Positions 1-16,891 of a stretch of DNA of 64,000 nucleotides are shown piece after piece. This DNA comes from Candidatus Omnitrophota bacterium (lineage in GTDB: Bacteria > Omnitrophota > Gorgyraeia > Duberdicusellales > 4484-171). Positions within the stretch are counted from its first letter, which is position 1, and every line of letters starts with the position of its first letter. Under the pieces are notes generated by a model, which was not told the origin of the DNA, searched no databases, and was given only the letters and a program-made list of their open reading frames with translations. The stretch lies in contig JAAEQW010000341.1 of the NCBI GenBank assembly GCA_024231025.1, forward strand, positions 54,155-118,154, given 5' to 3'. The translations under genes and the position numbers were made by a program.

Positions 1-37
1 TTGAAGATATTTTTGAAAATTGAAGACTTTTTGAACA
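1..37. repeat. 37-bp direct repeat, copy 1 (identical to 8453..8489); candidate island boundary
   Basis: Exact identity of TTGAAGATATTTTTGAAAATTGAAGACTTTTTGAACA at 1..37 and 8453..8489; the repeat may extend left of the window edge. Confidence 0.8.
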
Positions 38-223
38 CCTTAATATAACAATATACTGAAATCCAAAATTCGTCCGTGTCAATAATTAAGTATTGTGTCC
101 CCGGAATTTGCAGAGCTTGAATGGCGCAAGAAACAAAAAGTAACGCTTAAGCTTTCAGGGAAAAAAATTATCATTGAGGATTGGAAAAGATAAATAGCAA
201 AACTTTTGTTACGCAATACGCTT

Positions 224-1129
224 TTATCTTTTGCATTTAGGATTAAACGATGGACGATATTGAGACTCTCTTGCCGAGCTATGTTTTGGCCTATTGCCAG
301 CACTTCCCTGTGACTCTAGATTTATAGGAAACGACGTTACCAACAATTCTGTAAAACGTGATCGCTTGTTTGGATCTCCGGCGATTAAACTAGGTCTTTC
401 TATTTCTGTCTTAAAGAAAACTCCATCATACTGTTGTTTTATCAAAGGATGAGCAGCGTTGCTAACCATCACTTTTGCTCCTCTTCTCGCTAATTTTTCT
501 GCCAATTTCGCCAACCTCAACTCATCAGAATGTTGGAAAAGCACAGAATTATACTCAGCAAAACCATTATTTATGTGCGTTGTTATGTAGGGGGGGTCAA
601 AATAAATAAAATCTGTCCTTCGTCTTGAGTCCTTAACAGCTTCTTCAAAATCACAACACTTGAGCTTGGCTCTTTTCAAAAGGCGACTCGCTTTTAATAA
701 TTGATCTGCATCAAATACTCGACTATTCTCTGATGAGCTTCTCCCTATAGGAACATTGAACTTACCACTCTTATTCACTCTGTACAAGCCATTCCAGCAT
801 GTTTTATTAATGTAAATAAAATAAGCTGCTTTTTTTATACGGTCTCTTTCTGTGTTAAACTTTTCTCTAATTAAGTAATATGTGTCTTTGTCACCTTTTA
901 TACGCTTAAGAATTTTTATAATTGATGGGCAGTTATTTTTTACCTGACGATAACAATTGATTAGATCTGGATTCATATCTGCTAGAATCGCTGCTTTAGG
1001 TTCTAAAAGAAAAAAAAGGGCTCCGCTACCCAAAAATGGCTCATAGTAGGTACTAAATGTTGGAATATTATTCCTTATTCTGGGGATGAGCCACCTTTTT
1101 CCGCCTGCCCATTTTAAAAATGGATTCAT
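224..1129 (-). CDS. Dam-family (D12 class) N6-adenine DNA methyltransferase
   Basis: N-terminal FLKWAGGK motif, FxGxG-like AdoMet loop (EPFLGSGALFF), catalytic DPPY (FIYFDPPYITTH); last gene of a co-directional 5-gene operon. Confidence 0.85.
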   Translation of the reverse strand: MNPFLKWAGGKRWLIPRIRNNIPTFSTYYEPFLGSGALFFLLEPKAAILADMNPDLINCYRQVKNNCPSIIKILKRIKGDKDTYYLIREKFNTERDRIKKAAYFIYINKTCWNGLYRVNKSGKFNVPIGRSSSENSRVFDADQLLKASRLLKRAKLKCCDFEEAVKDSRRRTDFIYFDPPYITTHINNGFAEYNSVLFQHSDELRLAKLAEKLARRGAKVMVSNAAHPLIKQQYDGVFFKTEIERPSLIAGDPNKRSRFTELLVTSFPINLESQGSAGNRPKHSSARESQYRPSFNPKCKR

Positions 1130-1133
1130 ATAG

Positions 1134-2018
1134 TTACAATCCTATGCTTAGTTTCTGCCTAACCTTAAAATCTTTCACTAAAGCTTCCGACTGAATAGAT
1201 GAAATCATATCAGACAATTGAGCGAAGGCTTCTGCCGATATCAATCTACGAAGTCTTGCCCGTTCGATGTCATTCGCTTTTGACAATAGACCTTTAAAAC
1301 AATTATATAAATAAATAAAACTCTCATCAGTAGATTCAGATTCTTCGGGGCCAAGCTTTTTATACAACTTAAAGTTATTTTTCGTTGTTAAAGATAGGCA
1401 CATATTCGAAAAAGATCTCGTTTCTATCATTTGGACAGAGCTTCTGAAAATATCCCTATTATCTCTATCTAAATCTTTGAATAAATGTATCAATTTGTCT
1501 TGCAACTCTCTAAAGTATTTTATAACTTCTTCAAATTTTTGCAAATGTTTTGACTTGTCTAAAGACTTACCTAAGCGACCATGCGAGTATTTTGTTTTAA
1601 GACTTAGTAAATATTCAGTAAAGTTTTTCCCGCTAAACTTACGAGCATTTTCATAAATTTCTATCAGCTCTCTATCCGACAACTTACCTCTAACTTCTTG
1701 TTTAGGGTCTATAAAAGGTAGCATTTCTATCAAAGAACTAACCCTTTTTAATTCGCCAACATCGCGCATCATGTCATCTTTTTTGCCCCATATTTGTCGT
1801 ATTTTATAAGCTCGAAAAATAGTAGGCCTTTTTATCAATCCTTTTGTTTCTTTTTGGATTTTCCACCCCATAGAGTGAGGCTTCTTCACCCCCAACTCCT
1901 TAAGGCAGTTCCCTATTTCCCATAGAGCTTCCAGCCTTAACTTCACTTCAGTGTGAGAGTCTCTATACAAATTGTTTAGATCGGTAATTGAATTAATTAT
2001 TTTACTTAAAATAGCCAT
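1134..2018 (-). CDS. hypothetical protein (294 aa), no recognisable motif; possible nuclease/effector partner of the adjacent MTase
   Basis: Long ORF, 4-nt spacing to Dam gene and 14-nt to GHKL gene; function unknown. Confidence 0.5.
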   Translation of the reverse strand: MAILSKIINSITDLNNLYRDSHTEVKLRLEALWEIGNCLKELGVKKPHSMGWKIQKETKGLIKRPTIFRAYKIRQIWGKKDDMMRDVGELKRVSSLIEMLPFIDPKQEVRGKLSDRELIEIYENARKFSGKNFTEYLLSLKTKYSHGRLGKSLDKSKHLQKFEEVIKYFRELQDKLIHLFKDLDRDNRDIFRSSVQMIETRSFSNMCLSLTTKNNFKLYKKLGPEESESTDESFIYLYNCFKGLLSKANDIERARLRRLISAEAFAQLSDMISSIQSEALVKDFKVRQKLSIGL

Positions 2019-2032
2019 TTTTTGCCGTTCTT

Positions 2033-3706
2033 CTATCCTATATCCATTTCCTCACCGAGAAGAGTTCCCACTAACACATTCTCTACTTTCAGGCTCAAAT
2101 TTACCACATTGTCTGCCACCTCTGAAACTGAAGGGACTCTGCCTCTTTTCTCAAATAGCCTGTGCACACAATAGGGGCTAATAATTTGAGAAACGTAACT
2201 TAAAAGCCTTACATCAAACTTAACACGTCCAGTTTTATTTACATTTCGTGAAATAAAATCGGGATGCTGAGTATTGACAATAAGCGAATTTCCTAAGTCA
2301 ATAACTCTATCTTCACCTGCATGGTTTTGAAATTCAATTTTAGGTCCAGGAGAAGTGATAACTTTTTCATTTGAAGATCCTGAAGTAGAAGAAGCTTGTC
2401 CCGCACCGGAACCACCACTTGTATTCGAATCACCAGGACCGCTCTGTCCCGCATCAGAAATGGAACCACCAGAACCTGTACCATTCGCCCCTTCACCACC
2501 GCCACCTGGTACATCTTCTCCACCAAAAGGCACATCACCATCTTGAGAATTAGGCTTTTCATTGTAAGTTCCTGGTTCACCAGAAGGAACTAGTTGCTCA
2601 AACTCTAATTTGAACTTCTGAAGTATCTGCGATAGGCAATCAGACATAATTTTGCTTATTTTTTTAAATGATTCTTGCGTTTTCTTGTTCATAGCATCGT
2701 CAATCAAAATCTTGAGATCTGTCTGCACTTCACGTAATATTTCATAAAGTTTTTCTCTATTAACAGAATCTTTCAAATCATCTCGCGTTAAATTTGGTGA
2801 ACAAACGTTATTGATCTCTATAGATCCCACCACAAACGGATTCGTCCAAACATAACTAATATCGCCATGCAATCGTAGATAGTTCTTAAAGCTTTTTAAG
2901 TCAGATATACTTTGAATGCGACGTCTTTTGTTCGTTAGTACCGGCAAACGATTCTCCTGGGCTTTATCAAGAACTTTTAAATCCACCTCGACAGAAATTC
3001 CCGATTCATCATTATCAAAATTCACCGAACGCTTTAATTCTGGTCCGACAAGTTTGCTGTAATCAAAATATTTACATTCGTAATGCTTCTTACCTTTTTC
3101 ATTAATAAAGATTCTTATCCTTTTAGCACGTAACACATCATCAAAATGATGCTCAATCTCTCCTGCAAGCGCAATAGCAAAACTACTTTTCTTAAAAACA
3201 TGTGGATCAAAACGAGAAATTGTAACACGCGTTCCACAATCAGTTAATTCATTTTTACTGTTTTCATAACAATGCACATCCTTTCTTTCATCAACTGTAC
3301 GATCAATTTTTATCACGGCTTCTTTGCACCCTTTTTTCCTACTTATAAACACGGCATCTTTAGCGAAGGCCCTAAAAGCATGGACCCCAAACCCAAACTG
3401 ACCATTAGCCCAAGCAACTGCCTTTTTCCTCGAACGCCCCACACTGGAAAGCAATTCGCACAATTCATCAGGTGCCATACCAGCGCAATTGTCGGTAAAA
3501 CTGACTGTTTTCTTGTCGGCATCTATGTGTATTTCGATGCGTGGAACCATTCGCTTACTTTGAAACTCCGGCATAGAGGCGGCATCTATAGAATTATCTA
3601 TATACTCCATAGCTGCTCGATAAAAGTCCTTATACGTTCCTGAAATCTGATTAATTAATTCATTTTGATCCCTAATTTGCAAACGTGTCTTCGCTATAGT
3701 TTTCAT
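2033..3706 (-). CDS. GHKL (Bergerat-fold) ATPase, MORC/MutL-like, with long Gly/Ser/Asp-rich linker and C-terminal domain
   Basis: N-box EYIDNSIDA, G1 box FTDNCAGM, G2 box GQFGFG within first ~110 aa; low-complexity GGGEGANGTGSGGS... linker; 4-nt overlap with upstream gene. Confidence 0.7.
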   Translation of the reverse strand: MKTIAKTRLQIRDQNELINQISGTYKDFYRAAMEYIDNSIDAASMPEFQSKRMVPRIEIHIDADKKTVSFTDNCAGMAPDELCELLSSVGRSRKKAVAWANGQFGFGVHAFRAFAKDAVFISRKKGCKEAVIKIDRTVDERKDVHCYENSKNELTDCGTRVTISRFDPHVFKKSSFAIALAGEIEHHFDDVLRAKRIRIFINEKGKKHYECKYFDYSKLVGPELKRSVNFDNDESGISVEVDLKVLDKAQENRLPVLTNKRRRIQSISDLKSFKNYLRLHGDISYVWTNPFVVGSIEINNVCSPNLTRDDLKDSVNREKLYEILREVQTDLKILIDDAMNKKTQESFKKISKIMSDCLSQILQKFKLEFEQLVPSGEPGTYNEKPNSQDGDVPFGGEDVPGGGGEGANGTGSGGSISDAGQSGPGDSNTSGGSGAGQASSTSGSSNEKVITSPGPKIEFQNHAGEDRVIDLGNSLIVNTQHPDFISRNVNKTGRVKFDVRLLSYVSQIISPYCVHRLFEKRGRVPSVSEVADNVVNLSLKVENVLVGTLLGEEMDIG

Positions 3707-5061
3707 ATTTTACATCCTCCTTTTATTATTCGATAACGAGTTTGGCTACCCTCGCCTTCCCTAATCACTTCACCTGTAGCCATCAATAGCTTAATCAATA
3801 CATAGGCTCTGCCAGGATTTAAGCGCGCATGTGTTGCTAGCTCGCGCGTCTGTAGACTACCGAATTCAGTTAGTACATCACGTATACAGTCTAGATCTTG
3901 CATTCTCTTAATGCAAGCGATTCTAGATCTATGTTCTATCCATGGTCTAACAGATTCAATGAAAGTAGGAGAAGCAGGTATATTTAATTCCTTTCTAAAG
4001 CTATCAATTGACCCCCAACACCTTCTAATGCTAGCTTCCAGATAACGCCATTTCCGATTAGACTGCAACACTGCAGTATTTGGATTATACCCAATTTCAT
4101 CCTTGATCTTTAGGTATGCTTTAATAATGTCTCTTTTTTTTCGAGATAAAAGTAATAACTCAATATCTTCATTTTTTATTTGATGTACAATTAGCAATCT
4201 TTTTACGTAATTTGAAGATACATTATTTGCCTTAGCCACTTTAGACAATGCTTTCAAGCGATAAAAGTCTTTAAGCAATTTTTGTTTGGATATGTATGGA
4301 TATTCATTCCCTCTATATTTGAACAATTTATATTTTGTACCTTTAACGAGAATCTGACGAATTCTTTGTCTGCTCAACTTTACGATTTTTCCAACATATT
4401 CTAAAGTCCCTCCTTCATTATAAAGATCAAAGCATTTTTTATAAAAAGTAATCCTGTCTGGAGAAAGAGCACTCCCTGCCGCTTCATTGATAATTCGTAA
4501 AGTGCCCGGATATTTAATTCTTAGGTTGCTTATCGCTACACCAGGTTTGCTAGATCCTTTTATTTTTTTATCTATCTCGGATTTCCAACCTATGGGCAAT
4601 CTCATGTTAAGGGACAAATCAATCTTAACCAATAAATTAGATATTTCCAACAATGTTCTCGTGCCGCTATTTTTTTCGCTTGCGATTAACTCTTCAGAAA
4701 GACACACCAAATCGAATAAAAAACTAGACCCTAATTTTTCTAGGATATTTCTTGCGCGCGCCGATAGTGGAATATCCAACAAAGGAATACACAAAACATA
4801 TGTTAAATACTCCAAACGCTCCTTTTTTTCTTGGTTTGTCAATCCATTCCCCTCTAAAGCAAAATTCCGTTGATTCAGTTTGAAATAATTGAAATAATCT
4901 ATTATTTCATTCACAGTTTTTACGCCTAAATTTGGTATAGATAATAACTCTCGCCTACTCAGCCTCATGCACTGAGTTTCAGTTTCAAAACCCTGTTCTC
5001 TTAAAGCATTTTTAGCCCTTACCGACAAGGACATTCTGCGCAGTTTTTTCTTTTTCCTCAT
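3703..5061 (-). CDS. multi-HTH DNA-binding protein with two RNAP alpha-CTD-like helix-hairpin-helix modules and a sigma70 region-4-like HTH
   Basis: Two segments resembling RpoA CTD (LSVRAKNALREQGFETETQCMRLSRRELLSIPNLGVKTVNEI and LSARARNILEKLGSSFLFDLVCLSEELIASEKNSGTRTLLEI), VGKIVKLSRQRIRQIL sigma r4.2-like HTH, C-terminal wHTH-like segment. Confidence 0.5.
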   Translation of the reverse strand: MRKKKKLRRMSLSVRAKNALREQGFETETQCMRLSRRELLSIPNLGVKTVNEIIDYFNYFKLNQRNFALEGNGLTNQEKKERLEYLTYVLCIPLLDIPLSARARNILEKLGSSFLFDLVCLSEELIASEKNSGTRTLLEISNLLVKIDLSLNMRLPIGWKSEIDKKIKGSSKPGVAISNLRIKYPGTLRIINEAAGSALSPDRITFYKKCFDLYNEGGTLEYVGKIVKLSRQRIRQILVKGTKYKLFKYRGNEYPYISKQKLLKDFYRLKALSKVAKANNVSSNYVKRLLIVHQIKNEDIELLLLSRKKRDIIKAYLKIKDEIGYNPNTAVLQSNRKWRYLEASIRRCWGSIDSFRKELNIPASPTFIESVRPWIEHRSRIACIKRMQDLDCIRDVLTEFGSLQTRELATHARLNPGRAYVLIKLLMATGEVIREGEGSQTRYRIIKGGCKI

Positions 5062-5279
5062 AATTTAAATTTCTTATGCTTTGGGAAACGAAATCTAGCT
5101 TTAGCCTCACGAATTTTCGAATCAATAGCAGAAAATATCTTCACTATGTCAGATTGAGAATATTCATAAACACTTCTGTTAGAGCAATTTCCCAAAATTT
5201 TAAGCTTTTTTAATACTTCATTTGTTCTCTTTTCTGCCAATTTTCTAAAGCGTTCAGCCTTTTCACTATTTTTATCCAT
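5058..5279 (-). CDS. small 73-aa protein, paralog of 11033..11254; first gene of the operon, possible regulator
   Basis: ~40% identity to the 73-aa ORF at 11033..11254 (shared ERF+++A.KR.N...L.IL.NCS.R..Y.FS....K.F.AID...AK..F); 4-nt overlap with downstream gene. Confidence 0.5.
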   Translation of the reverse strand: MDKNSEKAERFRKLAEKRTNEVLKKLKILGNCSNRSVYEYSQSDIVKIFSAIDSKIREAKARFRFPKHKKFKL

Positions 5280-5559
5280 AACATCTCCTTGATAAATAAC
5301 ATGTTTTTTTAGTAAATAAATGGCTTATTTACTAAATAATACCATTATTCTCTAAAAAAGTCAAGTAAGCCGCTATAATTGCGAAAATGCTAGGATGTCC
5401 CTCCCTCGGCAAGCGCAGTCGTCCGGCTTCATCTGCCAGGGGCAGATTCCGCAGCGTTCTTTGTGCGCTTGCCTCACCCTCCGATATAAGGTAGCCAATC
5501 CTAAACGCCCACCGCGGCCAGAAGAATATTTTCCGGATTAAAAACGAAATTTTTCGATA

Positions 5560-5946
5560 CATTAAAAGCCCGACGAAGGTGGGTGGCTAAGGCAGGCTAA
5601 AGAACCTTACGAATTCACCAACCAAGGTGGTTTTGCAGGCTCTTAGCGCAGGTGCTGTAGTGCCCTAGCACGAAAGCCCGAGCACAGAGACTGCTTGAAT
5701 AAGCGAGCGCCAAGCGAGTGGCCAAGCGAAGCCCCCGGCCCCAGCCGGGGCGAGCGGATCTTTCGCCACCCACCTAGCCCCGCCCTAGCGGGGCGGCACA
5801 GGTATCAGATTAAAGGTTTTGCTTTCTGCATTGGCGAATGGTATTCGGAATCACAATAGTGAAGAAATAATTCGAATCTAACCTGAATGGGGAGCCAAAG
5901 TCTTCTTTTCGAAATTCGTCCCGCCCAAAAGGCGGGACTTTTTCTT
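5560..5946 (+). ncRNA. candidate structured RNA of unknown class (GC-rich, multi-hairpin, ends in a terminator)
   Basis: Local GC ~60-70% versus ~35% background; long-range pairing GGTGGGTGG (5583)/CCACCCACC (5771); hairpins GCCCCGC-CUA-GCGGGGC and CCCCGGC-CCCA-GCCGGGG; no convincing ORF; 3' terminator hairpin. Confidence 0.25.
5917..5946 (+). terminator. rho-independent terminator (GTCCCGCC-caaaag-GGCGGGAC then TTTTTCTTTTT)
   Basis: 8-bp GC stem plus T-run read directly from sequence. Confidence 0.6.
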
Positions 5947-6301
5947 TTTCCCCAGCGCGCGCGGAATCCGAATAAAATAGATTCATTTGGATTGATTTTG
6001 TTGAATAGATGATCGATTGAAAGAATTTTTTTGCCAGAAGATTTCTTTGGATTCCACGGGAAGAAAAAAGGGATTTTCGGACGAGGTCAAGGGTTTGTGA
6101 CCGGAGGCTACTGCCGTAGGAAATGCCGAGAACATTCCAAATTTATATTATTCAGACAGCGACGGCCTATGCGGCCGCCATTCCGATAAATGCCTACGTC
6201 ATTTATCGGCTAAATACCCCACCCTTTAAGGTAGCCCAACGATATCTTGAAGTTCCCCGTAGATTTTAAAATTAACTCTATCTAAAAAATAACCCCTAAC
6301 A

Positions 6302-7150
6302 TTACTGCTTTGCTAAACCCACTAACCCATCAAAATCAATTATTTTATCGGAACCACCAAAAACATCTTTAGCCAATTCTTTTAACCCCAAATCGTTACT
6401 AACCAAATAATCCAAATCTGTTAAATAAATAAGGTAATATTGATCGTAATGGTCGCCTTCCCTTACTCCCCTCCCTAAAACAACATATCTATAAAATAAA
6501 GCCATAAAAACTCTAGAGCTAGTAGAAAAATAAGGATAACGCCTGGGGGTATCAGTAATTTTATTTGTTTTCTCATCAGAAACAGATTTTCCTGCTCTTA
6601 AAAATAAGTATCGAATTAAATCTCTTCTCATATTCATTATTGTTTTATCATTGTAGAATTCATCAAAACTCATCTTGGGAACTGTTATTTTCTCATCTTT
6701 GAATTTATTAAAAATGCGCTTTTGAGTTGCTTTGTATTTTTTATAATTATCTTCCTTTTCCTGCTTAACGAGATTCAATATTTCTTCTATATTCTTTGGT
6801 TTTCGACCATTCGCTAAGGCTCCAAAAATGCTTTTAGCATACTCCGTTTCTTTAGAACCCAAAAAGATACTTTCATTTTCAAGTAGACCAAGGTCATGCC
6901 TAATTATTCTACTCCAATAATTAAAAATCCTATAATCTACCATACTTAGTAATATTTTGGAATACCTAATGAGTAAAGGTTTCCGCCGGGTGGAATAAAT
7001 ACCTAAAAGTTCAGCCAGTACTTCGGGGGTAGGATAAAACGAAAAGTATTTTCGTCTGAATGCAGAAATTATGAGTTTCTTGTCTTCCTGAATCGGATGT
7101 TTATCATAATTATCAAAAAAGTTGTTGTCGACCGTAATCTTTATTCCCAT
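6302..7150 (-). CDS. hypothetical protein (282 aa)
   Basis: Long ORF in island A; no recognisable motif. Confidence 0.5.
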   Translation of the reverse strand: MGIKITVDNNFFDNYDKHPIQEDKKLIISAFRRKYFSFYPTPEVLAELLGIYSTRRKPLLIRYSKILLSMVDYRIFNYWSRIIRHDLGLLENESIFLGSKETEYAKSIFGALANGRKPKNIEEILNLVKQEKEDNYKKYKATQKRIFNKFKDEKITVPKMSFDEFYNDKTIMNMRRDLIRYLFLRAGKSVSDEKTNKITDTPRRYPYFSTSSRVFMALFYRYVVLGRGVREGDHYDQYYLIYLTDLDYLVSNDLGLKELAKDVFGGSDKIIDFDGLVGLAKQ

Positions 7151-7220
7151 ATACTATTCGCAAAAACCTCATGTTTCTTTAAATATTCCGATGATTACGT
7201 CGTGCCTTGCACCTAATCCG

Positions 7221-7886
7221 TTATTTTATCCCCAATTCTAGCACACCATACGGTGAGGACGTTATATTGCTAAAATTAACTGCATCATTTTCGAAACTCA
7301 CGTGTTTTGTTCGCAACCAACAGTCGCCAATCTTATATTCTATATCAAGGCTTAAAGCATAAGGCAATTTAGGAAAAGTATTTTGGAAATCCTTTTTGGG
7401 CATAAAAACAACATAAGCAGACTTAGCGCTTCTTTTTTCTATGGTAACGCCATTAAAAACGTCTGGGGTGATATTCGCGCTCTGCTTGGATATGATTTGC
7501 AACTTATCGGCTTCTCGTCTCGCATAAAACTTACCAATTTCTTTATCGTTAGCATGAATCGTTATCCTCATATCTTCTATGATACCACCGATTGCATTAT
7601 TATTAACTATGGATAACTTCGTATTCACAATGGGAAGCATGAAAGACTGACCCTTTGTTGTAAATGCAGAAGTCGCTAAAAAGATAGCCCTACCTATATT
7701 TATTCTTGGATAAAAAGGAGTAAGGAAAGAAAACCATAGAGTTGAAATTAACGCAACCAAACTTACAAAAACTTCAATTCTTATCTTTTGGGCAACCAAC
7801 AAATAGATCATCCAAGCTATCAACAAAAGCAATAGAATAGTTTTAAGATTAAAAATATAAATTCTTGCAAATGAAATGCAATTCAT
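7221..7886 (-). CDS. hypothetical membrane protein (2 N-terminal TM helices)
   Basis: Hydrophobic stretches ILLLLLIAWMIYLLVA and FVSLVALISTLWFSFL; follows an XRE regulator gene. Confidence 0.5.
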   Translation of the reverse strand: MNCISFARIYIFNLKTILLLLLIAWMIYLLVAQKIRIEVFVSLVALISTLWFSFLTPFYPRINIGRAIFLATSAFTTKGQSFMLPIVNTKLSIVNNNAIGGIIEDMRITIHANDKEIGKFYARREADKLQIISKQSANITPDVFNGVTIEKRSAKSAYVVFMPKKDFQNTFPKLPYALSLDIEYKIGDCWLRTKHVSFENDAVNFSNITSSPYGVLELGIK

Positions 7887-7937
7887 AATTTCCCCCTTCT
7901 TTCTTACTCAAAAGATTTTATCAACGGCTTACTAATT

Positions 7938-8147
7938 TTAAATTCGTTTCGTTCCTCGCCCCGTTAATTTGTCTATACTAACCCCCAAAGCATCTGCCAA
8001 CTTAATAACCGTCTCAATCTTAGGATTTTTAATTCCACCTCGTTCAATTTTTATAATGGTATTATAAGAAATTTCTGATTCTACAGCGAGCTTTTCTTGA
8101 GACCATCCTTTTTGCTTGCGAAGTTTGACTAAATTCTTCAGATACAT
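7938..8147 (-). CDS. XRE-family (Cro/cI-type) HTH transcriptional regulator
   Basis: LRKQKGWSQEKLAVESEISYNTIIKIERG...IETVIKLADALGVSIDKL is the canonical HTH_3 pattern. Confidence 0.75.
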   Translation of the reverse strand: MYLKNLVKLRKQKGWSQEKLAVESEISYNTIIKIERGGIKNPKIETVIKLADALGVSIDKLTGRGTKRI

Positions 8148-8452
8148 ATTGTTTGACTCCTTGGTAGTATTGTGATACAGTATTGCAATACTATATTGGA
8201 TTACCCCGTATTGCTTTATTCTGAGCTATTTTAACTCGTTTCTTAATAAAATCAAGGAGATATATGTATAACTTCAATTTCTACCGCCAAAGCATAAAAT
8301 TGGGAGCAATAATTGCTTTGATTATATTGGTGATACAGATAATTTCCCTTGCGAGATAACGGGAGGGGGCAAGCCCCTCCCCTACAAAACAAAATAATAA
8401 TCAATGGATCGGGCGTAAAAAAATCCCCCATCCTTTTGGATGGGGGCGATTC

Positions 8453-8489
8453 TTGAAGATATTTTTGAAAATTGAAGACTTTTTGAACA
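8453..8489. repeat. 37-bp direct repeat, copy 2 (identical to 1..37)
   Basis: Exact match to window start; preceded by GC hairpins at 8361..8385 and 8424..8446. Confidence 0.8.
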
Positions 8490-8590
8490 TTTGAGCATTT
8501 GAGCATTGGACCGCATTGCCCCATTGGATTTTCCAATGTTCTAATGATCCAATGTTCCAATGCTCTAGCCATTTTTTTCGATGAAAAAAT

Positions 8591-8607
8591 TGGCTCCCCG
8601 GGTAGGG
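8591..8607. repeat. 17-nt duplicate of the tRNA-Asn 3' end (candidate att site of integrated island B)
   Basis: TGGCTCCCCGGGTAGGG here is identical to 20812..20828 (reverse complement of the last 17 nt of the tRNA including CCA); lies ~150 bp from the serine recombinase gene end. Confidence 0.65.
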
Positions 8608-8720
8608 GCAGAAATTACCTTAATAAAAACAATGGGAATATTTCTGCACTTCCTCGGGCAGTAGCCCTCGGTCGCTCAACAGCTGCCTTCGGCAGAGTTC
8701 GAGACCAAACGGGGACATAT

Positions 8721-8762
8721 AAAATAAAAATCCCCCGCAAAATGCGGGGGATATTTTATTCA
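8721..8762 (-). terminator. rho-independent terminator downstream of serine recombinase gene (probably bidirectional)
   Basis: CCCCCGC-aaaat-GCGGGGG stem flanked by A/T runs on both sides. Confidence 0.6.
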
Positions 8763-10369
8763 TGGCTCCCCGAAGAAACTTCAGGAACAATATCTCCCCG
8801 GAGCACCTGAGTAATATCGCTTCTAAACCTTTTAGACACTATACCAACTTGAACCTTGTCATTTCCTATCTTGATGTGTTGTAAAATCCAATTCAGAATA
8901 AACCTTTTCTGATAAAGTTTAAGGTGATCTTTAAATATCTCATCGAAAGAGCCAAGTAACCGCTTAACATCACCCTCCTCTAAAGACTGTACCTTTACGG
9001 CATTGATCTCACGATTAAGATGATCTATATTATCCATCATCTTTCTACGCCTATCATCCAATTCAGATAGCTTTTGCTCCACGAATGTCCTGCCTTTATC
9101 GATATTCATAAGATTATCCATAACTTTCTTGGCTTTAGCATTCACACTTTCAAGCTCAACGGCAAACACGCGTTTTTGCTCTTTAAGGCTGGGCAGTTGC
9201 CTGCTGAATTTCTCGTTTAGCTTTTCAGTAATCTTATGGAGCATAAGAGGAGTAGAGACGGCTGATTGCGTAAGGCGTTGAACGGCTAATTCGAGTTCCC
9301 GCTCCGGAACCTTAAATTTACACTCATCATTTGTACAGTAATAATAATAGTAAACTTTTCCGCTCTTGCCGTGCCCATTTCTTCCTTCCATTCTTGCACC
9401 ACATTGATGACAGCAAAGCACACCATTAAATATATACGTGTGTTTTGTAGGCTTTGCGCCATTATTCCGATGTTTGTAATTTTCTTTCAAGAGTTGTTGG
9501 GTTTTTTGGAACTTGCTCTCGTCGATAATAGCCGGCCAAACAGCCTTGCAAGTTGAATATCTCATTTTTTCCGGCAAAGATTCTTGTTTTTCAGCTTTAC
9601 GTTTTTTATTGATCTCTTTCATCCCAATATACGCCTTGTTGCTTAAAATCTTCAATATTGAACTATAGCAAAATTTCTTTGCCGGATGATATCTGTCACG
9701 ACGGGAGGTGTACTCTTTTGATAAGTAACCTTTTTTATTTGCTATTATAGCAGTTCTGACAACTGAACCGTTTTCAAGATAGGTATCAAATAGGAAACTT
9801 ACAACTTTAGCCTCCTTTTTATTAGGGATGAGATAACCTTTTTTGTTTTTATCTTCATCATATCCCAACAAAGGAACACCGCCATTAAATAACCCTCGTT
9901 GAGCTCGCGCATAAAGCCCTGAGATTGTTCGCTCGGAACATTGCTCTCGTTCAAATTGGTTTAATGCTCCCATTATCGTAAGGAAACATTTGCCCTGCGA
10001 CGTTGTTGTGTCAAACTGTTCCTTCAGGCAAACAAAATCTACTTTATTTTTATTGAAATAATCAACCATATCCAAAAGATCCCTTGTTGAACGGCTTATC
10101 CTCGACAAAGCAACGCACAGAACAGCATTGATCTTACCATCCTGTATGTCAGACATCATTCTAAGATACTCTGGGCGATTTGTATTCTTAGCAGAAATAC
10201 CTCGATCTACGTATGTGTCTACAATCACCCATTTCTGTTTAGTTGAGCTTGATTTCATCCTGACGTAATCTCGAAGCATCTGTTCTTGATTCTTGAGAGA
10301 CCCTTCTTCCAATTTCGCCTGCTTCTCAGTACTCACGCGTTGATAAAGGCTACATCTTTTTATTTCCAT
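8756..10369 (-). CDS. large serine recombinase (serine integrase type)
   Basis: N-terminal resolvase catalytic domain (YQRVSTEKQ with catalytic Ser, VALSRISR), recombinase domain, Cys-rich zinc-ribbon region (CCHQCGARMEGRNGH...YYYYYC) and C-terminal coiled coil; 537 aa. Confidence 0.85.
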   Translation of the reverse strand: MEIKRCSLYQRVSTEKQAKLEEGSLKNQEQMLRDYVRMKSSSTKQKWVIVDTYVDRGISAKNTNRPEYLRMMSDIQDGKINAVLCVALSRISRSTRDLLDMVDYFNKNKVDFVCLKEQFDTTTSQGKCFLTIMGALNQFEREQCSERTISGLYARAQRGLFNGGVPLLGYDEDKNKKGYLIPNKKEAKVVSFLFDTYLENGSVVRTAIIANKKGYLSKEYTSRRDRYHPAKKFCYSSILKILSNKAYIGMKEINKKRKAEKQESLPEKMRYSTCKAVWPAIIDESKFQKTQQLLKENYKHRNNGAKPTKHTYIFNGVLCCHQCGARMEGRNGHGKSGKVYYYYYCTNDECKFKVPERELELAVQRLTQSAVSTPLMLHKITEKLNEKFSRQLPSLKEQKRVFAVELESVNAKAKKVMDNLMNIDKGRTFVEQKLSELDDRRRKMMDNIDHLNREINAVKVQSLEEGDVKRLLGSFDEIFKDHLKLYQKRFILNWILQHIKIGNDKVQVGIVSKRFRSDITQVLRGDIVPEVSSGSHE

Positions 10370-10381
10370 TTATGCCTCCTC

Positions 10382-10747
10382 TCATTTTCTGTACCTTTTC
10401 ATCTGCTGGGTAAGATCTACAATTATCCAGCCATCATTTAAACGCGTAGCTTTGTACCTCCCTATAGCAAATCCTGCTTCTATTGCTTGATTGACAAGAT
10501 CGCAGTTGTTAATTATTAGAGCGGAATCATCCATGCTATTCAAAAAGTAAACATCAGGATCATCTATCCACCCTTGTTTTTGAAAAGGAAAGACGCAAAT
10601 ACGACTATGTTCTTTTTGAAAGATAACTTTAGCCATATCAAACTCTCTAGAAACCCATCTCCCGCATCCTTTGCTCAAATAAAGATTCCCTGCATTCCTG
10701 TAACTGCAATAATACATATTGTTTCGTTCAATAATTGTCTCTATCAT
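10382..10747 (-). CDS. hypothetical protein (121 aa), co-transcribed with serine integrase
   Basis: ORF 12 nt upstream of the integrase gene; no motif recognised. Confidence 0.45.
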   Translation of the reverse strand: MIETIIERNNMYYCSYRNAGNLYLSKGCGRWVSREFDMAKVIFQKEHSRICVFPFQKQGWIDDPDVYFLNSMDDSALIINNCDLVNQAIEAGFAIGRYKATRLNDGWIIVDLTQQMKRYRK

Positions 10748-11032
10748 TTTTATGCTCCTTATGATTTTGTGTTATAAATAGAAATATCCCGTCAGCTATC
10801 AAATGGACTATTTCATCTTCATTTGGATCTGTTACCATTGCTGGATCATTACGTAGCATAAAGGCCTCCTCGTTTTCTTGCCTCTATATTGCTAGTTTCC
10901 CATACCAATAACAGACTAAAAAGCATCTGCTATCAGCAATCCAGCAAAACGATTATTCTTTCACTTCGGTATTTATGTCATGACTGACGGCAGGAAATAC
11001 CTTACTCGCTCGAATATCGCTGGCGATTATTA

Positions 11033-11254
11033 TTAAAGCTCTACTTTTTTAAACATCGTGGTTGCGAAGCTGTTTTTTGCGCTCTGAAGAGCTGCATCAA
11101 TCGCCCCGAACATTTTTTCAACTTGCTCTACTGAAAAGGCGTACGACTTGCGCTCCGAACAATTTGCCAGGATTTCTAATTGCTCGATTATTCTGTTCGA
11201 TCTTTTCGTTGCTATCCGCTTGAACCTTTCTTGTGGTGTTTCGCTCATCGACAA
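11033..11254 (-). CDS. small 73-aa protein, paralog of 5058..5279
   Basis: See 5058..5279; heads the integrase operon. Confidence 0.5.
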   Translation of the reverse strand: MSMSETPQERFKRIATKRSNRIIEQLEILANCSERKSYAFSVEQVEKMFGAIDAALQSAKNSFATTMFKKVEL

Positions 11255-11395
11255 TCTCCTTCCGTTAATATAACGCTAATACTCAAGATATGCTCTATAT
11301 CTCATCTGCAATGATTATATCGTATATATATAATCATGTCAAGATTATTTTTATAACTTCAGGATAGCCTGAGATTGCTCTAGATTGAGGATTTA

Positions 11396-11475
11396 TTAGC
11401 AAAAAAGGTAAAATCCTTTACTCGGTTAAAAACCACCCTACATTTGAATGTAGACGAATTAGACAGCTATTCTGT
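11396..11475. repeat. ~75-nt repeated intergenic element, copy a (hairpin GGTAAA-n4-TTTACC plus CTACATT-TGA-AATGTAG palindrome)
   Basis: Shares AAAAGGTAAAATyCTTTACy...CTACATTT.AAT..AGACGAATTAGA.AGCTA.TC with copies at 12205..12280 and 18655..18715. Confidence 0.6.
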
Positions 11476-11541
11476 TATTCTTTTACGATCACACCCCTCT
11501 TTATCATTTATCTTAAAGCCATGCTGTGATAAAATGACATC

Positions 11542-12186
11542 ATGATTGATTATAACTGGATCTTCAGTGCATTGGTCCAATCCTTAGCCGCAATGATTGG
11601 GGTAATAGGCATGTTTGCGGTATATAGATTGCAAACACAAGAAAAAATAATCGAGAAGAAATTTGAAAAGTTTCGTATATTCTTAGAAGAAAATACAGGA
11701 ACGAAGATAGATAATCCTACGGAAGAAAGAATTATTGAAAAAGCCAAAGGTGTTAGACAGAAATACCAAAAAATCATTAACGATTCCCCAAATAACCTTA
11801 ATGTTATGAAAAATACACAAGGATTCACCGATAGTGCAATGGAACAAGCATCAAGCATAGCCGATGTGGGGATAGAAATATTTAAAAAACATACCATAGA
11901 TATTGATAACTTTAATGCATCTATAGAGCAACATAAAAATAAAAATAAAGATATATCTAAACAAGCTTTAGATATAGTAGGTCAACTAGTTTTTCTGTTT
12001 GGTTTAAGCGTGTTAGTGCTTATATTTAGTAAAGTACTTACTGTGACAAATACTGAGTTGTTTGAACCGGGAACAATGACAGTAGTATACGGAGGGCTTG
12101 TTGTTCTAACTATAGTCTCTATTTATCTTGTCATTTTGTTGCGTACTATATATGTTTTCTGCAACACCTGTTTTTCTGTTAAGTAA
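11542..12186 (+). CDS. hypothetical membrane protein (214 aa)
   Basis: N-terminal TM (IFSALVQSLAAMIGVIGMFAVY) and two C-terminal TM segments; flanked by repeat copies a and b. Confidence 0.5.
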   Translation: MIDYNWIFSALVQSLAAMIGVIGMFAVYRLQTQEKIIEKKFEKFRIFLEENTGTKIDNPTEERIIEKAKGVRQKYQKIINDSPNNLNVMKNTQGFTDSAMEQASSIADVGIEIFKKHTIDIDNFNASIEQHKNKNKDISKQALDIVGQLVFLFGLSVLVLIFSKVLTVTNTELFEPGTMTVVYGGLVVLTIVSIYLVILLRTIYVFCNTCFSVK

Positions 12187-12204
12187 CTGATTTTAAAATA
12201 GACT

Positions 12205-12280
12205 TAAAAGGTAAAATTCTTTACCCTATCAAAAGCTACTCTACATTTAAATACAGACGAATTAGAAAGCTACTCCTATC
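12205..12280. repeat. repeated intergenic element, copy b
   Basis: See 11396..11475. Confidence 0.6.
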
Positions 12281-13053
12281 TTCTTTTGTGCTTTGAGGAA
12301 TAATCGCTTTGAGACAATGGGCGGGTGTGTTCCTTGGACATGAAAATTACCAAAGCTGGTTTCACCATAATACATCTTATTTCTTAAAACATACTTTAAA
12401 GATTGAATCTGAAATTGTTTACCTCGTTTAGTGGTTGCTCGTAACTTATTAAGCTTACGAACAATGGTTGTATATTTATGTCCCTTAACTAGCCACCTAA
12501 ATATTCTGACTACGTTCTTAGCTTCAGTTGGTTTAATCTCGAGCTTCTTGCCAACCTTAACATAACCAAAAGGTATCGGTCCAGACCCACGTTCACCGTT
12601 CTTAGCGTTATTAATTCTCCCGTCTTTAAGGCGGGCAGTAATAACGTCCTTTTCTAATTCAGCAAAAACATCAGCAATACGCTTAAAAGCTTTCTGTAAA
12701 GGGTCATCTAGATTATATTCTGGGTCTACTACAGAATTAATCTCGATGTCATGTTTCTTGAATTGTGTCTCAAGCCAAAGAGATACAGTCAACTCGCGAC
12801 TCAACCTATCTTGTTTGTAAACAATGACATTATCAATAAGACCATCTTCGCAATCCTTTAATAGTCGCAACAAACCCGGCCTTTCTTTTATCGCACCACT
12901 AATACCCTTATCTTCATAAAATCTGTTAAGCTCCAGATTCTTATCCTTACAATATGCCTCAATCTTATCTCTCTGGATTTCTAATCCTTCGCCGTTTTCG
13001 ACTTGATTAGCAGTTGATACTCTGAGATACCCTACATTATATCTAGATTGCAT
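12262..13053 (-). CDS. serine recombinase (resolvase/invertase-type catalytic domain plus recombinase domain, 263 aa)
   Basis: GYLRVSTANQ catalytic motif, VYKQDRLSRE; shorter than the 537-aa integrase (no zinc ribbon or coiled coil). Confidence 0.8.
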   Translation of the reverse strand: MQSRYNVGYLRVSTANQVENGEGLEIQRDKIEAYCKDKNLELNRFYEDKGISGAIKERPGLLRLLKDCEDGLIDNVIVYKQDRLSRELTVSLWLETQFKKHDIEINSVVDPEYNLDDPLQKAFKRIADVFAELEKDVITARLKDGRINNAKNGERGSGPIPFGYVKVGKKLEIKPTEAKNVVRIFRWLVKGHKYTTIVRKLNKLRATTKRGKQFQIQSLKYVLRNKMYYGETSFGNFHVQGTHPPIVSKRLFLKAQKKIGVAF

Positions 13054-13221
13054 AAGAATTACCCTCCCAATACAATAGATAAACCATCGAGGAATTAAAA
13101 TGTCAAGTTTCGTGTTGAAATAGTTGCCTAAGGCAGATCAGAAACAGTGTCAGGGAGAGTGCATATTGCAAGATGGGTAATGATTTATGGCTGGAAAAGT
13201 TAAAGATTTTTAAAAAAATGT

Positions 13222-14406
13222 TTAGTTCTTGCCGATAACGTATTTTTTAAAATAGTTCTTAGTACCTCCGAAGTACGTTTTAACCCTAGCAATACCAAAA
13301 AAATCATAATATCGCTTAGTAGTGGATCCATCCTGTGCTATGTCTCGTTTTTTAGCATATCGTGCATAAAATGGCTTGTCTTTTGGAGATAGAACGACAT
13401 CAATGCATGCGCTTGGTCGTATCGCCCGTCTAAGAAGCGTTCTTAGGTGATAGTCGGCTTCTGGCAAAGAATACCCCACAAAAACAACCCTATCCGCTGT
13501 GGCTAATTCTGCGTAAGCATTATACCATACTGTCCTTATATGAATATTATCAAAATTCTTTTCAAAGGTCGGCGTAATAATATACGGTTGCAAGACGTGT
13601 TTGTTCTTTTTTCTTCTTACTGTGTGCCCTAGACAATGCTTACAAAAACTATCTTGCACGTACAGTTTTCGCCCCTCATTTGCCCCTAACCCTGTATACA
13701 TCCTGTTACAGTTGGGACAAAAAAGCCAATTAATGGAGCCATGTAGTTTAAGAATTTTTATTCTGTTTTTTTCCTCTTGATTAACAGGCGGAATGGCTAT
13801 CCCGTCACAATCTTCCTTTAGTCGCAAAATGCAACAACAAAAATCTGTGCTGATTTGTTGCTTTTTGTTTTTTGTTTTCTTGGTAATTTTATACACAGAG
13901 TCTTCTAGCAAAGAGTCCCAATTCAAAGATATTACGCTGAGCCTATTTCCTCTTGACCGTTTTTTTATCGTCTCTTTAACAAAATGACTTGCTAAAGAAT
14001 CATAAAATTTATCACCGGTAGTTTCTGAACGTAAAGAAGCTTCATGGAATACAGTTAAAATAAGCCGTTTCAAATCGTCTCTAATACTGTCTAACTCTTT
14101 CCAAGAATAATCAAAACAATTACGTCGTTGCGCTATGGTTTGATCTAGCAATGTAAATAAGTCTTCTAGACTAGGTAGGGCGTTGGGATAAAATATCTGA
14201 TCAATAAATTCTCTGAGCTCTTTTCTCCGAACAAGACTTTCGCCATACAATATATCAAACTTTTGGGAAAAAACTTTAGTTAAAATGAGTCGCTGCAAGG
14301 GAAACCCCGCACCATACGAGAATCCTGCTCCGAATACATAAACTGTCTTGGTAGGTAGGGCTGTTCTCACTTCAGTTTGAAATGTTGGTTTAGCACCTTG
14401 GCCCAT
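13222..14406 (-). CDS. SIR2_2-family sirtuin-like protein (defence-type SIR2)
   Basis: N-terminal Gly-rich NAD loop VYVFGAGFSYGAGFP, LHGS motif (KLHGSINW), zinc ribbon CPNCN...CKHC, Rossmann strand VVFVGYSLPEADYHL. Confidence 0.7.
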   Translation of the reverse strand: MGQGAKPTFQTEVRTALPTKTVYVFGAGFSYGAGFPLQRLILTKVFSQKFDILYGESLVRRKELREFIDQIFYPNALPSLEDLFTLLDQTIAQRRNCFDYSWKELDSIRDDLKRLILTVFHEASLRSETTGDKFYDSLASHFVKETIKKRSRGNRLSVISLNWDSLLEDSVYKITKKTKNKKQQISTDFCCCILRLKEDCDGIAIPPVNQEEKNRIKILKLHGSINWLFCPNCNRMYTGLGANEGRKLYVQDSFCKHCLGHTVRRKKNKHVLQPYIITPTFEKNFDNIHIRTVWYNAYAELATADRVVFVGYSLPEADYHLRTLLRRAIRPSACIDVVLSPKDKPFYARYAKKRDIAQDGSTTKRYYDFFGIARVKTYFGGTKNYFKKYVIGKN

Positions 14407-15788
14407 ACAATACAGTGTCGAACACCGTCTGGCCCAAGAACTTTTTCTAGAGTGCCTTTAGTTTTATTAAGATTTCTAACAATTTCTTTTATGGTCGGCG
14501 TGTTATGATACTCCCGTTTCTTGCACCACATATAATGTGTCACAGTCTTGTTTTTTGTCTCGGTAGCCGGGTATGGCTTGCCTTTTGCAGAATGCTTCAT
14601 TTCTCCATATTCTTTAAATTCACTTTCCGGATTATTTTTTATAATATCCTTACACATTTTACAACTACAAACCGTTTTATAATATCCTGTGATTGTTTTT
14701 GAACCCCCCACAGCACGAAGGGCACGAAGGGCATCGCGGAAAAGAAGTCGCGTGTGTAGTTGTGGAAAATAAAATTTTGCCGCAGGAAAGCCTCCACCCA
14801 CAGGAACAACTCCACGATATTCACCGTATTCTAAACTATGTGCGACCCCTACTAGATTTGGCGTTATCCCGCTTTTGCCTAAAGCCACGGAAAAAAATCC
14901 CCCGTACAGATTTGCTACTGGAGCAATTTGCCCTAGCCTATTAATTAAATTAATTAAGGCTTCTAGCTTTATGGCCGAAGCATCTTGTTCATACAAATCG
15001 TCTACCCACAATAAGAAAATGTCCGGCTTAACTTTTGCATATTCTTCTACGAGCATATCAATTTTTTCATTATCTATTAAGATATCCTGAGATATAACAA
15101 TTTGGCTTGCCAAAGGTTTCTTTTTTGCCTTTAAAATTTTCTTAGAAATTTTAGAACACATTACATTTACCTGCAACCACTTTTTAAATTCACTTTCGAA
15201 TAAGTAAAAATATGGTGCTACAATAGTTGTCGGAGAAAACATATCCGACACTTTTAGCCCGATATATCTGTAATACTTTGCAGCATCGGATCCTTCCAAT
15301 TCCCTAGAAACGGTTTCCAGCTGAAAGTTAATAACTCTCTGACAAAACCCCCGTGTTACTGACGAATCTTTAAAATCTTTGGGAATAAGTGGTCGTTTTT
15401 TATTAAGTATGCTCGTTTCTACAGGCTCACCGAAGGCATCTATTAATTTTTTAATTGATTTCTTTATTTGCCCTTTTGATTTTTCAGATTGAGACTCTAT
15501 AAGGCTCAAATCATGCTGAAAGGCATGCGTTTGAGGGTCTATTATATACGGCTTATTTTTTGCCTTTGTGGAAATAAACATAGCTATCGCGCTTGTCATA
15601 TATGCCATAATGTTTGCATTCACAATAAGCTGATCATAGGTGGCCAAAAGACTGCCTAGCAAAAACTTCTGATCAGCGGCTGTTCCAAACCGTACTAAAT
15701 GAAATCCTGCTATTGGCTTCATGCTTCCTGAACGTCTTGTTTGTTTTTTTGGATATACTTTTTTATCCATGTTTTTCCTACTCGCCAA
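14367..15788 (-). CDS. hypothetical protein with weak tRNA-guanine transglycosylase (Tgt/DpdA)-like features
   Basis: C-terminal CSCKMCK...H (CxCxxC..H) zinc motif as in TGT; LYGGFFSVALG and LVGVAHS resemble the Tgt GGLAVGE and LMGVGKP segments; weak, by eye only. The 40-nt overlap with the SIR2 gene suggests the true start or stop may differ. Confidence 0.35.
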   Translation of the reverse strand: MASRKNMDKKVYPKKQTRRSGSMKPIAGFHLVRFGTAADQKFLLGSLLATYDQLIVNANIMAYMTSAIAMFISTKAKNKPYIIDPQTHAFQHDLSLIESQSEKSKGQIKKSIKKLIDAFGEPVETSILNKKRPLIPKDFKDSSVTRGFCQRVINFQLETVSRELEGSDAAKYYRYIGLKVSDMFSPTTIVAPYFYLFESEFKKWLQVNVMCSKISKKILKAKKKPLASQIVISQDILIDNEKIDMLVEEYAKVKPDIFLLWVDDLYEQDASAIKLEALINLINRLGQIAPVANLYGGFFSVALGKSGITPNLVGVAHSLEYGEYRGVVPVGGGFPAAKFYFPQLHTRLLFRDALRALRAVGGSKTITGYYKTVCSCKMCKDIIKNNPESEFKEYGEMKHSAKGKPYPATETKNKTVTHYMWCKKREYHNTPTIKEIVRNLNKTKGTLEKVLGPDGVRHCIVWAKVLNQHFKLK

Positions 15789-16724: not shown

Positions 16725-16891
16725 GTTTCCCTTTGCATGTTCTTGCCTCTATTTTTATTATAAATCCGTTTCCGGCATAATCAAGAACTTCTTGGCCCGG
16801 CATTTTCGCTGTTTTTGATCTCCACACTACACCTTATATAACAAAGGGTTTGTTTTATTGACACCTGTTTCATTCTTACTATAATAAAGCC

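Follow-up and report, generated by a model that had tools for sequence, protein, structure and literature searches.

The window analysed here, 64 kb of DNA from a metagenome-assembled genome labelled Candidatus Omnitrophica bacterium, has a mean GC content of 39% (0.39, sd 0.058), and between positions 224 and 10747 the minus strand carries all open reading frames (ORFs) of 120 aa or more, except two that are nested within minus-strand genes. The gap at 5280-6301 (1,022 nt, 46.4% GC), which lies within this stretch, surpasses every other intergenic region of the window in both length and GC content. It is bordered on the left by a 73-aa ORF (5058-5279, minus strand) and on the right by a 282-aa ORF (6302-7150, minus strand) that encodes a PIN-like protein. 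The operon to its left, read on the minus strand, comprises the 73-aa protein, a 452-aa protein in which two RNA-polymerase alpha-CTD-like domains are combined with a sigma-70 region-4 helix-turn-helix (100% identical to NCBI protein GY858_09465), a 557-aa GHKL ATPase (HATPase_c_3), a 294-aa protein and a D12 adenine methyltransferase. To the right follow the 282-aa gene (100% identical to GY858_09475), a 221-aa gene, an HTH_3 gene and, beyond a non-coding interval of 608 nt, the gene for a large serine recombinase. A 537-aa ORF of the window is also 100% identical to an NCBI protein, on the same contig. The 282-aa protein has the PIN fold that marks PIN-domain RNases, with D8, D13, E47, D233, D236, D247 and D253 invariant in 15 homologues, and matches no Pfam PIN model.

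The related loci compared here are those that encode a homologue of the 452-aa protein, of the 282-aa protein or of the recombinase. The core formed by the small-protein, alphaCTD, GHKL and ~295-aa genes is complete in L001-L005 and in L131/L132, lacks the small gene in L006, and is followed at its 3' end by the D12 methyltransferase in three of the related loci. In every related locus the two modules that flank the gap are found apart and beside differing neighbours, which leads us to regard the gap as a junction between modules.

Composition of the gap and its flanks

A first-pass annotation of this DNA had described the whole gap as a 1-kb ORF-free segment of 60-70% GC and proposed it as a large structured non-coding RNA (ncRNA). 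GC content of that order is confined to ~5577-5800. The highest 150-nt maximum anywhere in the 64 kb (0.69) falls within 5577-5880, and GC content is 58% over 5395-5800, 53% over 5395-5560 and 41.5% over 5800-6300. The sole other non-coding GC peak of at least 0.55 in the window is a group I intron confirmed by Rfam, and comparable non-coding peaks occur about once per 30 kb of the window. The gap is a composite of a promoter/operator, a GC-rich block, a linker with a terminator and a right-hand 350 nt, and not a single 1-kb RNA.

The absence of genes from the gap was borne out. Mechanical listing yields six ORFs of 50-76 aa, all shorter than 80 aa, and none of them is credible. The period-3 power ratio is 1.06 over the gap and 0.79 over the core domain described below, compared with 6.6-19.5 (median 13) in giant-ORF windows and the 557-aa ORF and 2.9-5.1 in the two flanking ORFs; GC content is flat over the three codon phases, and stop codons interrupt every frame. 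Six-frame translation of the gap gave no Pfam match even at E <= 1, and the gap ORFs matched no family in Pfam, PADLOC or NCBIfam. The 76-aa ORF, which had been singled out as odd in composition and probably non-coding, has neither a PADLOC nor an NCBIfam match and overlaps the operon promoter. A 21-nt direct repeat (5476-5496 / 6216-6236) was also seen in the gap; we rejected it as a meaningful feature because ~0.7 exact 10-mer seeds are expected by our own estimate, which places it at chance level.

The left end of the gap, at 5285-5375 on the minus strand, carries a sigma-70 promoter and a palindromic operator of the downstream operon, recognised by consensus scan and by conservation. The promoter consists of a -35 box TTGACT (5364-5359), a 17-nt spacer and an extended -10 box TG-n-TATTAT (5341-5336), with a scan score of 10/12, and is overlapped by an AT-rich 15-nt palindrome (5305-5319 / 5325-5339) whose arms are 93% complementary. 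The layout ACTTGAC...TGGTA...TAAATA...TATTTAC recurs in L003 and L131, ahead of the small gene's orthologue, and has been kept even though the alphaCTD proteins of these loci share only 43-53% identity. By its hexamers, its spacing and its conservation in orthologous loci, the promoter at 5364-5336 has the marks of a sigma-70 promoter, and 5285-5375 is regulatory DNA of the operon and no part of a large RNA. Immediately beside it, on the plus strand, a TATAAT at 5374-5379 that was picked out by eye, with a poor -35 box TCTAAA, might represent the -10 box of a divergent promoter. A consensus promoter scan of the gap found no convincing plus-strand promoter and did not report this TATAAT.

At the opposite end, a second structured block had been proposed, and of this proposal the stem survives: a perfect 10-bp hairpin CCGATAAATG/CATTTATCGG is present at 6183-6192 / 6200-6209 (assigned to no strand), with no U-tract after it on either strand. 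The sequence around it does not bear out the remainder, as 5950-6300 is no more stable than its shuffles on either strand (z -0.5 and -1.2). The same part of the gap contains the left arm (6077-6155, assigned to no strand) of an ~80-nt inverted repeat whose partner lies at 8619-8696. The arms are 70% identical over 80 nt (E = 6e-7), and a 28-nt core pattern of the repeat gave 2 matches against 0 expected. Enclosed between them is a 2.6-kb cassette of the 282-aa PIN-like, 221-aa and HTH genes with a 470-nt non-coding stretch; since the two arms have no RNA fold in common, the repeat looks like a DNA-level feature that flanks this cassette. The large serine recombinase gene lies 60 nt past the right arm. 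Its closest relative, in L137, shares 81% amino-acid identity, but its DNA resembles that of the window no further than the gene's 3' end (8763), after which L137 has ispH; the recombinase element therefore extends to the right, and the gap lies outside it. No target-site duplication was seen on sequence inspection.

A predicted folded core and a plus-strand terminator

The GC-rich block opens with a 5' hairpin block (5395-5475, plus strand), in which a perfect 10-bp stem (5408-5417 / 5464-5473) surrounds a 7-bp hairpin (5432-5448) and which is no more stable than its shuffles (z -0.9). Within ~5400-5435, 16 positions of an 18-nt stretch agree with the sequence that precedes the L131 promoter on its upstream side. 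Further along, at 5577-5775 on the plus strand, the sequence is predicted to fold into a core domain with a four-way junction, in which an 11-bp closing helix (5577-5587 / 5765-5775) holds three branches. The long-range helix noticed in the first-pass annotation is thus present, at 5578-5586 / 5766-5774, some 5 nt from where it had been placed, and extends to 11 bp. Two of the 7-bp GC stems with short loops that had been noticed with it were also recovered, both on the plus strand and both with 4-nt loops: the hairpin CCCCGGC/GCCGGGG (5734-5751) within the core, and the hairpin GCCCCGC-CCUA-GCGGGGC (5777-5794) directly 3' of the core domain. The core further contains 2.5 tandem copies of a 12-nt AAGCGAG unit (5701-5729), as detected by TRF.

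On the plus strand, the core (5570-5800) has a minimum free energy (MFE) of -107 kcal/mol, with z between -4.3 (200 shuffles) and -4.6. Its MFE structure accounts for 2.1% of the ensemble (probability 0.021), a value in the top 3% of shuffles, and its ensemble diversity is 20 against 52 +/- 18 in shuffles. Adenine makes up 44% of its unpaired bases. The minus strand reaches only z -1.8 with a diffuse ensemble. As a positive control for folding we used the group I intron of the window (20862-21106, minus strand; RF00028, 101 bits), whose sense strand gives z -4.95, a diversity of 20.7 against 54.5 and 48% A among unpaired bases, and whose antisense strand is likewise diffuse. The single-sequence profiles of the core and of this ribozyme are therefore nearly identical (z ~-5, low diversity, A-rich loops, GC peak), although the intron has a family match and an adjacent split coding sequence and the candidate has neither.

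Because the bounds of the core (5577-5798) had been chosen to fit the closing helix, we carried out two control scans. Sliding 231-nt windows over the plus strand of the whole window gave a mean z of -0.44 (sd 1.5), and ~2% of them reach -4.3; those inside the gap reach only ~-2, as they cut the closing helix. The second scan took all 64 segments of 120-300 nt that are bounded by a perfect closing helix of at least 9 bp and folded them on both strands (128 in all). These helix-closed segments have a mean z of -2.35 (sd 2.5), and the plus strand of the core, at z -5.63, ranks 14/128 and approximately sixth among independent helix-closed loci; those ranked above it are mostly long intergenic palindromes that score highly on both strands. 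The fold of the core is unusual, but it is not unique. What makes the core distinctive is the combination of the top GC peak, strand asymmetry, A-rich loops, lack of coding signal and a terminator.

This terminator follows the core after a weakly structured, AT-rich linker of ~120 nt (5800-5917, plus strand). The intrinsic terminator that had been proposed for the plus strand was found at 5918-5946, where a GC-rich stem-loop (5918-5938; 8 bp, 7 of them G-C, with a 5-nt loop) leads into the T-rich tail TTTTTCTTTT, the stem-loop and U-tract arrangement of a rho-independent terminator. The tail that the minus strand would offer is GAAUUUCG, so the signal is restricted to the plus strand. Sites with 7 G-C pairs number four in 1-20000, this one included. 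On the plus strand there is no credible gene for more than 5 kb upstream of the terminator, and no ORF after 5946; given the empty stretch upstream, the simplest use for the terminator would be to end a non-coding plus-strand transcript.

Known RNA families and related loci

To place the candidate, we ran the 4,227 models of Rfam 15 over the window at the gathering threshold and over 5100-6500 at E <= 10. At the gathering threshold the only match in the whole window was the group I intron (20862-21106), with nothing in the gap; at E <= 10 the best score in 5100-6500 was 27 bits against a threshold of 50 and concerned the terminator hairpin only. Near-matches at that site merely reflect the shape of a terminator. 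The earlier failure to match RNase P, tmRNA, SRP, 6S or group II RNAs was confirmed at the same E <= 10, where OLE likewise had no match, and by these searches the candidate belongs to no known family. ARAGORN detected no tRNA and no tmRNA in the window. Coding, tRNA, tmRNA and integron attC readings were all rejected, on period-3, Pfam, ARAGORN and sequence inspection.

The categories that had been put forward as plausible, namely GOLLD, ROOL, HEARO/omega RNA and retron msr-msd, fell away. None matched in Rfam at E <= 10, and the check for a nearby reverse transcriptase (RT), TnpB or IscB-like ORF was negative: none of the 19 larger ORFs examined from 224 to 20480 carries an RT (RVT), TnpB or IscB (RuvC/OrfB) Pfam domain, a result that excludes a retron or an omega RNA in its defining gene context. 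Like GOLLD (RF01998), ROOL (RF03087) and HEARO (RF02033), the core is a GC-rich, multi-helix, non-coding element among mobile and defence genes, but it differs in matching none of their models at E <= 10, in its size of ~230 nt and in having no adjacent IscB or TnpB. GOLLD and ROOL are roughly 500-800 nt long. With retron msr-msd it shares a defence context and a structured domain whose ends are paired through a long-range inverted repeat; a retron, however, has an RT gene downstream, and the gap has none on either strand and nothing next on the plus strand. The RNA antitoxins of type III toxin-antitoxin systems (ToxI) resemble the candidate as small RNA genes with a terminator beside an RNase gene. 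ToxI-type antitoxins consist of tandem ~36-nt repeats (~34-36 nt) upstream of the toxin and on its strand, and type III toxins have a ToxN/AbiQ fold, not a PIN fold. Here the unit is 12 nt, and its mere 2.5 copies in TRF make no ToxI-like array; the neighbour is PIN-fold and the orientation convergent. A riboswitch, T-box or other leader can be excluded because no plus-strand ORF follows the terminator, which itself stands 120 nt from the closing helix.

In its general appearance the gap comes closest to the candidates of the GC-IGR surveys from the Breaker laboratory (PMC11109978, PMC6429828), with which it shares a long, GC-rich, ORF-free intergenic region (IGR), a multi-stem fold and a terminator. 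Long GC-rich IGRs in AT-rich genomes are an established enrichment criterion for structured ncRNAs (PMC11109978), although most GC-rich 'unknown IGRs' of that survey became known ORFs, low-ranking candidates or unnamed candidates (PMC11109978). Survey candidates are ranked on number of homologues and covariation, whereas the gap has a single representative, so that by GC-IGR conventions it would file as 'unnamed' or 'low-ranking' (PMC11109978).

Searches for relatives returned none. When the whole gap and the core were compared by BLASTN with phage and plasmid collections, the sole match was a chance one of 31 nt at the terminator, and five exact patterns had no match in viral contigs, where a protein-based scan for the 282-aa family likewise found no relatives. 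The pattern GGTGGGTGGC-N150-180-GCCACCCACC had at least 119 chance matches among genome contigs, in high-GC genomes, none of them homologous by nhmmer; it was a poor choice of pattern. A 20-mer gave three chance matches among metagenome contigs, in contigs of 60% GC. Across the related loci, nhmmer and BLAST produced no alignable block, with the promoter/operator alone shared, and a single-sequence covariance model of the core (R1) recovered only itself from the window and 16 related loci. Relatives of the operon have an upstream gap of 315-380 nt that is unrelated to the block, except for the promoter and a possible 18-nt similarity in L131. We also predicted RNA targets by duplex energy against 45 translation-initiation regions; no neighbouring gene came near the top, and the prediction was uninformative.

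A partial parallel comes from the surroundings of the 282-aa family. In L138, which holds the closest 282-aa homologue (56% identity), a bidirectional terminator comes after the gene, and beyond it lies a 186-nt, 69% GC, ORF-free block. As in the window, this block is convergent with the gene, and its antisense-to-gene strand folds somewhat better than the other (z -2.9 vs -1.9). As a homologue of the core it was rejected: the Smith-Waterman alignment of the two does no better than chance (z 0.44, a score reached by 33% of shuffles) and there is no covariance-model match. The motif AGCGAG-N5-AGCGAGTG occurs in both the core and the L138 block. In L009 and L010 a piece of ~60% GC lies downstream of the 282-aa homologue; it is unstructured (z ~0), falls partly within a called gene in L010, and sits exactly where the two contigs diverge. 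No GC-rich piece lies downstream of the homologue in L007. Across these four loci, the recurrence of a GC-rich block downstream of the 282-aa family amounts to a hint and not to a finding.

Competing explanations of the gap

We consider the likeliest explanation to be that the gap holds an orphan, stand-alone plus-strand gene for a structured ncRNA, with a core of ~230 nt, a transcript of at most ~560 nt and a fold predicted from a single sequence, and we put its probability a little below one half (about 0.45). The reading is plausible because the core folds in a strand-specific manner equal to that of the intron, its unpaired bases are A-rich, coding signal is lacking, and the terminator would otherwise be without purpose. 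Of the large RNA originally proposed, the plus-strand core (5577-5798) with its terminator thus remains plausible, while the 1-kb extent does not, since ~95 nt at the left end belong to the promoter/operator and ~350 nt at the right end show no significant structure. Transcription would start at a weak promoter placed back-to-back with the operon promoter (TATAAT, 5374-5379), or nearer the core. The transcript would then pass through the GC-rich core, with its predicted 11-bp-closed four-way junction and 3' hairpin, and would end at the intrinsic terminator whose signal stands at 5918-5946, giving an RNA of ~370-560 nt that would converge on the 3' end of the PIN-like RNase gene. Speculatively, the compact, well-defined fold and the A-rich loops suggest an RNA that acts through its shape, perhaps by binding protein or as a scaffold rather than by antisense pairing. 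Several results weigh against the ncRNA reading: the block is a single sequence for which the searches of phages, plasmids, viral contigs and patterns in genome and metagenome contigs gave no homologue and hence no covariation; its bounds were fitted to the helix, and it ranks only 14/128; the promoter scan of the plus strand gave nothing convincing; relatives of the two flanking gene sets have no alignable counterpart; and most GC-rich 'unknown IGRs' of the earlier survey did not become named RNAs (PMC11109978).

The main rival, to which we assign a distinctly smaller though still appreciable chance, is that the block is non-functional junction DNA, a GC-richer foreign remnant caught between separately acquired defence modules, with vestigial hairpins and terminator. 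It would fit the separate occurrence of the flanking modules beside different neighbours in every related locus, the lack of any homologue of the block in the collections searched, the placement of the unstructured L009/L010 piece (z ~0) at the point of contig divergence, and the rank of the core, whose z lies within the top ~10% of helix-closed domains and is not unique. Against such a remnant, the strand-specific folding and A-rich loops mirror those of a real ribozyme in the same window, the block has none of the period-3 signal or protein similarity that a recently decayed gene fragment should retain, and a strong terminator, specific to the plus strand, stands intact 120 nt downstream.

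A role at the level of DNA seems to us unlikely. The gap would then supply sites for recombination or protein binding, such as the termini of a 2.6-kb cassette able to invert or move, or regulatory sequences upstream of the operon. The 80-nt inverted repeat (6077-6155 / 8619-8696) whose arms share no RNA fold, its position around the PIN-like/221-aa/HTH cassette and the serine recombinase gene 60 nt past the right arm all lend themselves to this explanation, as do the 2.5 tandem 12-nt AAGCGAG units in the core and the resemblance of ~5400-5435 to the region upstream of the L131 promoter. The repeat arm, however, lies outside the GC-rich core and past the terminator, the recombinase element extends away from the gap (its similarity to L137 ends at 8763, then ispH), and no target-site duplication was seen; a DNA site, moreover, would give no advantage in folding to one strand.

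Less likely again is that the block is a cis-acting part of a neighbouring mRNA, whether as an upstream leader of the operon, as an extended 3' UTR belonging to the 282-aa gene or as a riboswitch-type leader that has lost its ORF. There is no good minus-strand terminator between the 282-aa gene and the block, and the block adjoins the operon promoter, as this explanation would have it. Relatives share that promoter (5364-5336), however, and its position downstream of the block places the block outside the operon's 5' UTR; the fold favours the plus strand, whereas both neighbouring genes are on the minus strand, the terminator has no plus-strand ORF after it, and no riboswitch or leader family of Rfam matches. 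Least probable by far is that the gap encodes one or more small proteins or a pseudogene, as its six mechanically listed ORFs of 50-76 aa could suggest, given a period-3 ratio (1.06; core 0.79) far from that of coding DNA (6.6-19.5) or of the flanking ORFs (2.9-5.1), GC content that does not differ between codon phases, the lack of any match in Pfam, PADLOC or NCBIfam, and a 76-aa ORF that overlaps the operon promoter.

If the ncRNA reading is right, a further and decidedly long-shot conjecture would make the candidate the first representative seen of a rapidly evolving class of structured RNAs. These would be paired with PIN-fold RNases of an undescribed, insert-bearing family, in the defence islands of uncultured bacteria with AT-rich genomes; in such a 'PIN plus RNA' module the convergent RNA might serve as inhibitor, decoy or substrate of the RNase. 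The hint for such a module is the GC-rich (60-69%), ORF-free block that lies convergent downstream of the gene in the window and in L138; a GC-rich block also comes after the gene in L009/L010, but partly within a called gene.

As it stands, the gap adds a further candidate, GC-rich, intergenic and present in single copy, to those that go unnamed in large surveys, and its practical value is as a target for sensitive homology search and RNA-seq. Should the RNA prove real, Omnitrophota, to our knowledge a phylum without a cultured model organism, would gain an unclassified structured RNA where very few are known. RNAs of defence systems, among them those of retrons, the DRT ncRNAs and ToxI, have repeatedly proved central to mechanism. 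A real RNA here would be a shaped RNA gene in a defence island, with a MORC-like GHKL ATPase/methyltransferase operon on one side of it and, on the other, an HTH/PIN-like RNase cassette, both uncharacterised.

An inverted repeat around the PIN-like gene

The gene for the PIN-like 282-aa protein (6302-7150, minus strand) is enclosed by an inverted repeat of ~80 nt, the arms of which, at 6077-6155 and 8619-8696, share 70% identity (E = 6e-7). The 2.6-kb segment between the arms comprises this gene, a gene for a 221-aa product whose N-terminus is hydrophobic, an HTH_3 gene and a non-coding portion of 470 nt. Past the right arm, the gene for a large serine recombinase begins after 60 nt. The flanked segment may be a cassette able to invert or move; no target-site duplication was observed at it. 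Just downstream of the 282-aa gene homologues in three related loci, L138, L009 and L010, lie GC-rich pieces (58-69%; 1343-1528, 2700-2835 and 2480-2600, respectively), in contigs that are otherwise 33-35% GC. The L138 block lacks an ORF and stands behind a bidirectional terminator. The point at which L009 and L010 diverge falls within their GC-rich piece.

A second long non-coding stretch, 8148-8755, has strong predicted structure, with a folding z (energy relative to shuffled sequences, lower values being more structured) of -6.2 at 8396-8626. It contains a minus-strand terminator (8446-8425), an imperfect, CCAATG-rich palindrome (~8485-8565) and a bidirectional terminator (8730-8752). A small RNA encoded on the minus strand, or else a site for a recombinase, may lie within it.

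Recombinases and an element edge

Two serine recombinase genes are found on the minus strand, at 8756-10369 and 12262-13053. The first has a relative 81% identical in the related locus L137, and DNA similarity between the two stops at the 3' end of the gene, after which L137 runs into ispH. This break marks where an integrative element reaching rightward has its boundary. Adjoining the second recombinase is a minus-strand gene for a SIR2-like protein (13222-14406), an arrangement consistent with a defence island.

Structured segments elsewhere and a giant ORF

Five further intergenic segments (37666-37967, 24267-24523, 28578-28824, 42781-43126 and 36686-37031) have very low folding z on both strands, the lowest being -13.9 at 37674-37853. 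These segments consist of long palindromes or of convergent terminators, and Rfam gives no match for any of the five. On the minus strand, 20862-21106 is a group I intron (101 bits to RF00028). The gap in which it lies measures 839 nt and is close to a fragment of a family-A DNA polymerase (18742-19920) and to a Rep-like ORF (20016-20480); the adjoining 20471-20930 also has extreme predicted structure, with z down to -8. The last 20 kb of the window is filled by a single minus-strand ORF of 6,747 aa (43665-63908), with a GC content of 43-46%, above that of the remainder.

The alphaCTD/GHKL gene set

The genes at 224-5279 (minus strand) form a conserved set that recurs in nine related loci encoding homologues of the alphaCTD protein (L001-L006 and L131-L133). 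Its members encode a ~70-aa protein, a ~450-aa alphaCTD/sigma-r4 protein, a ~560-aa GHKL (HATPase_c_3) ATPase and a ~295-aa protein, often accompanied by a D12 or N4/N6 methyltransferase. The set matched no PADLOC system. It probably represents a MORC-like module of restriction/defence type that is as yet uncharacterised, and its promoter/operator is conserved.
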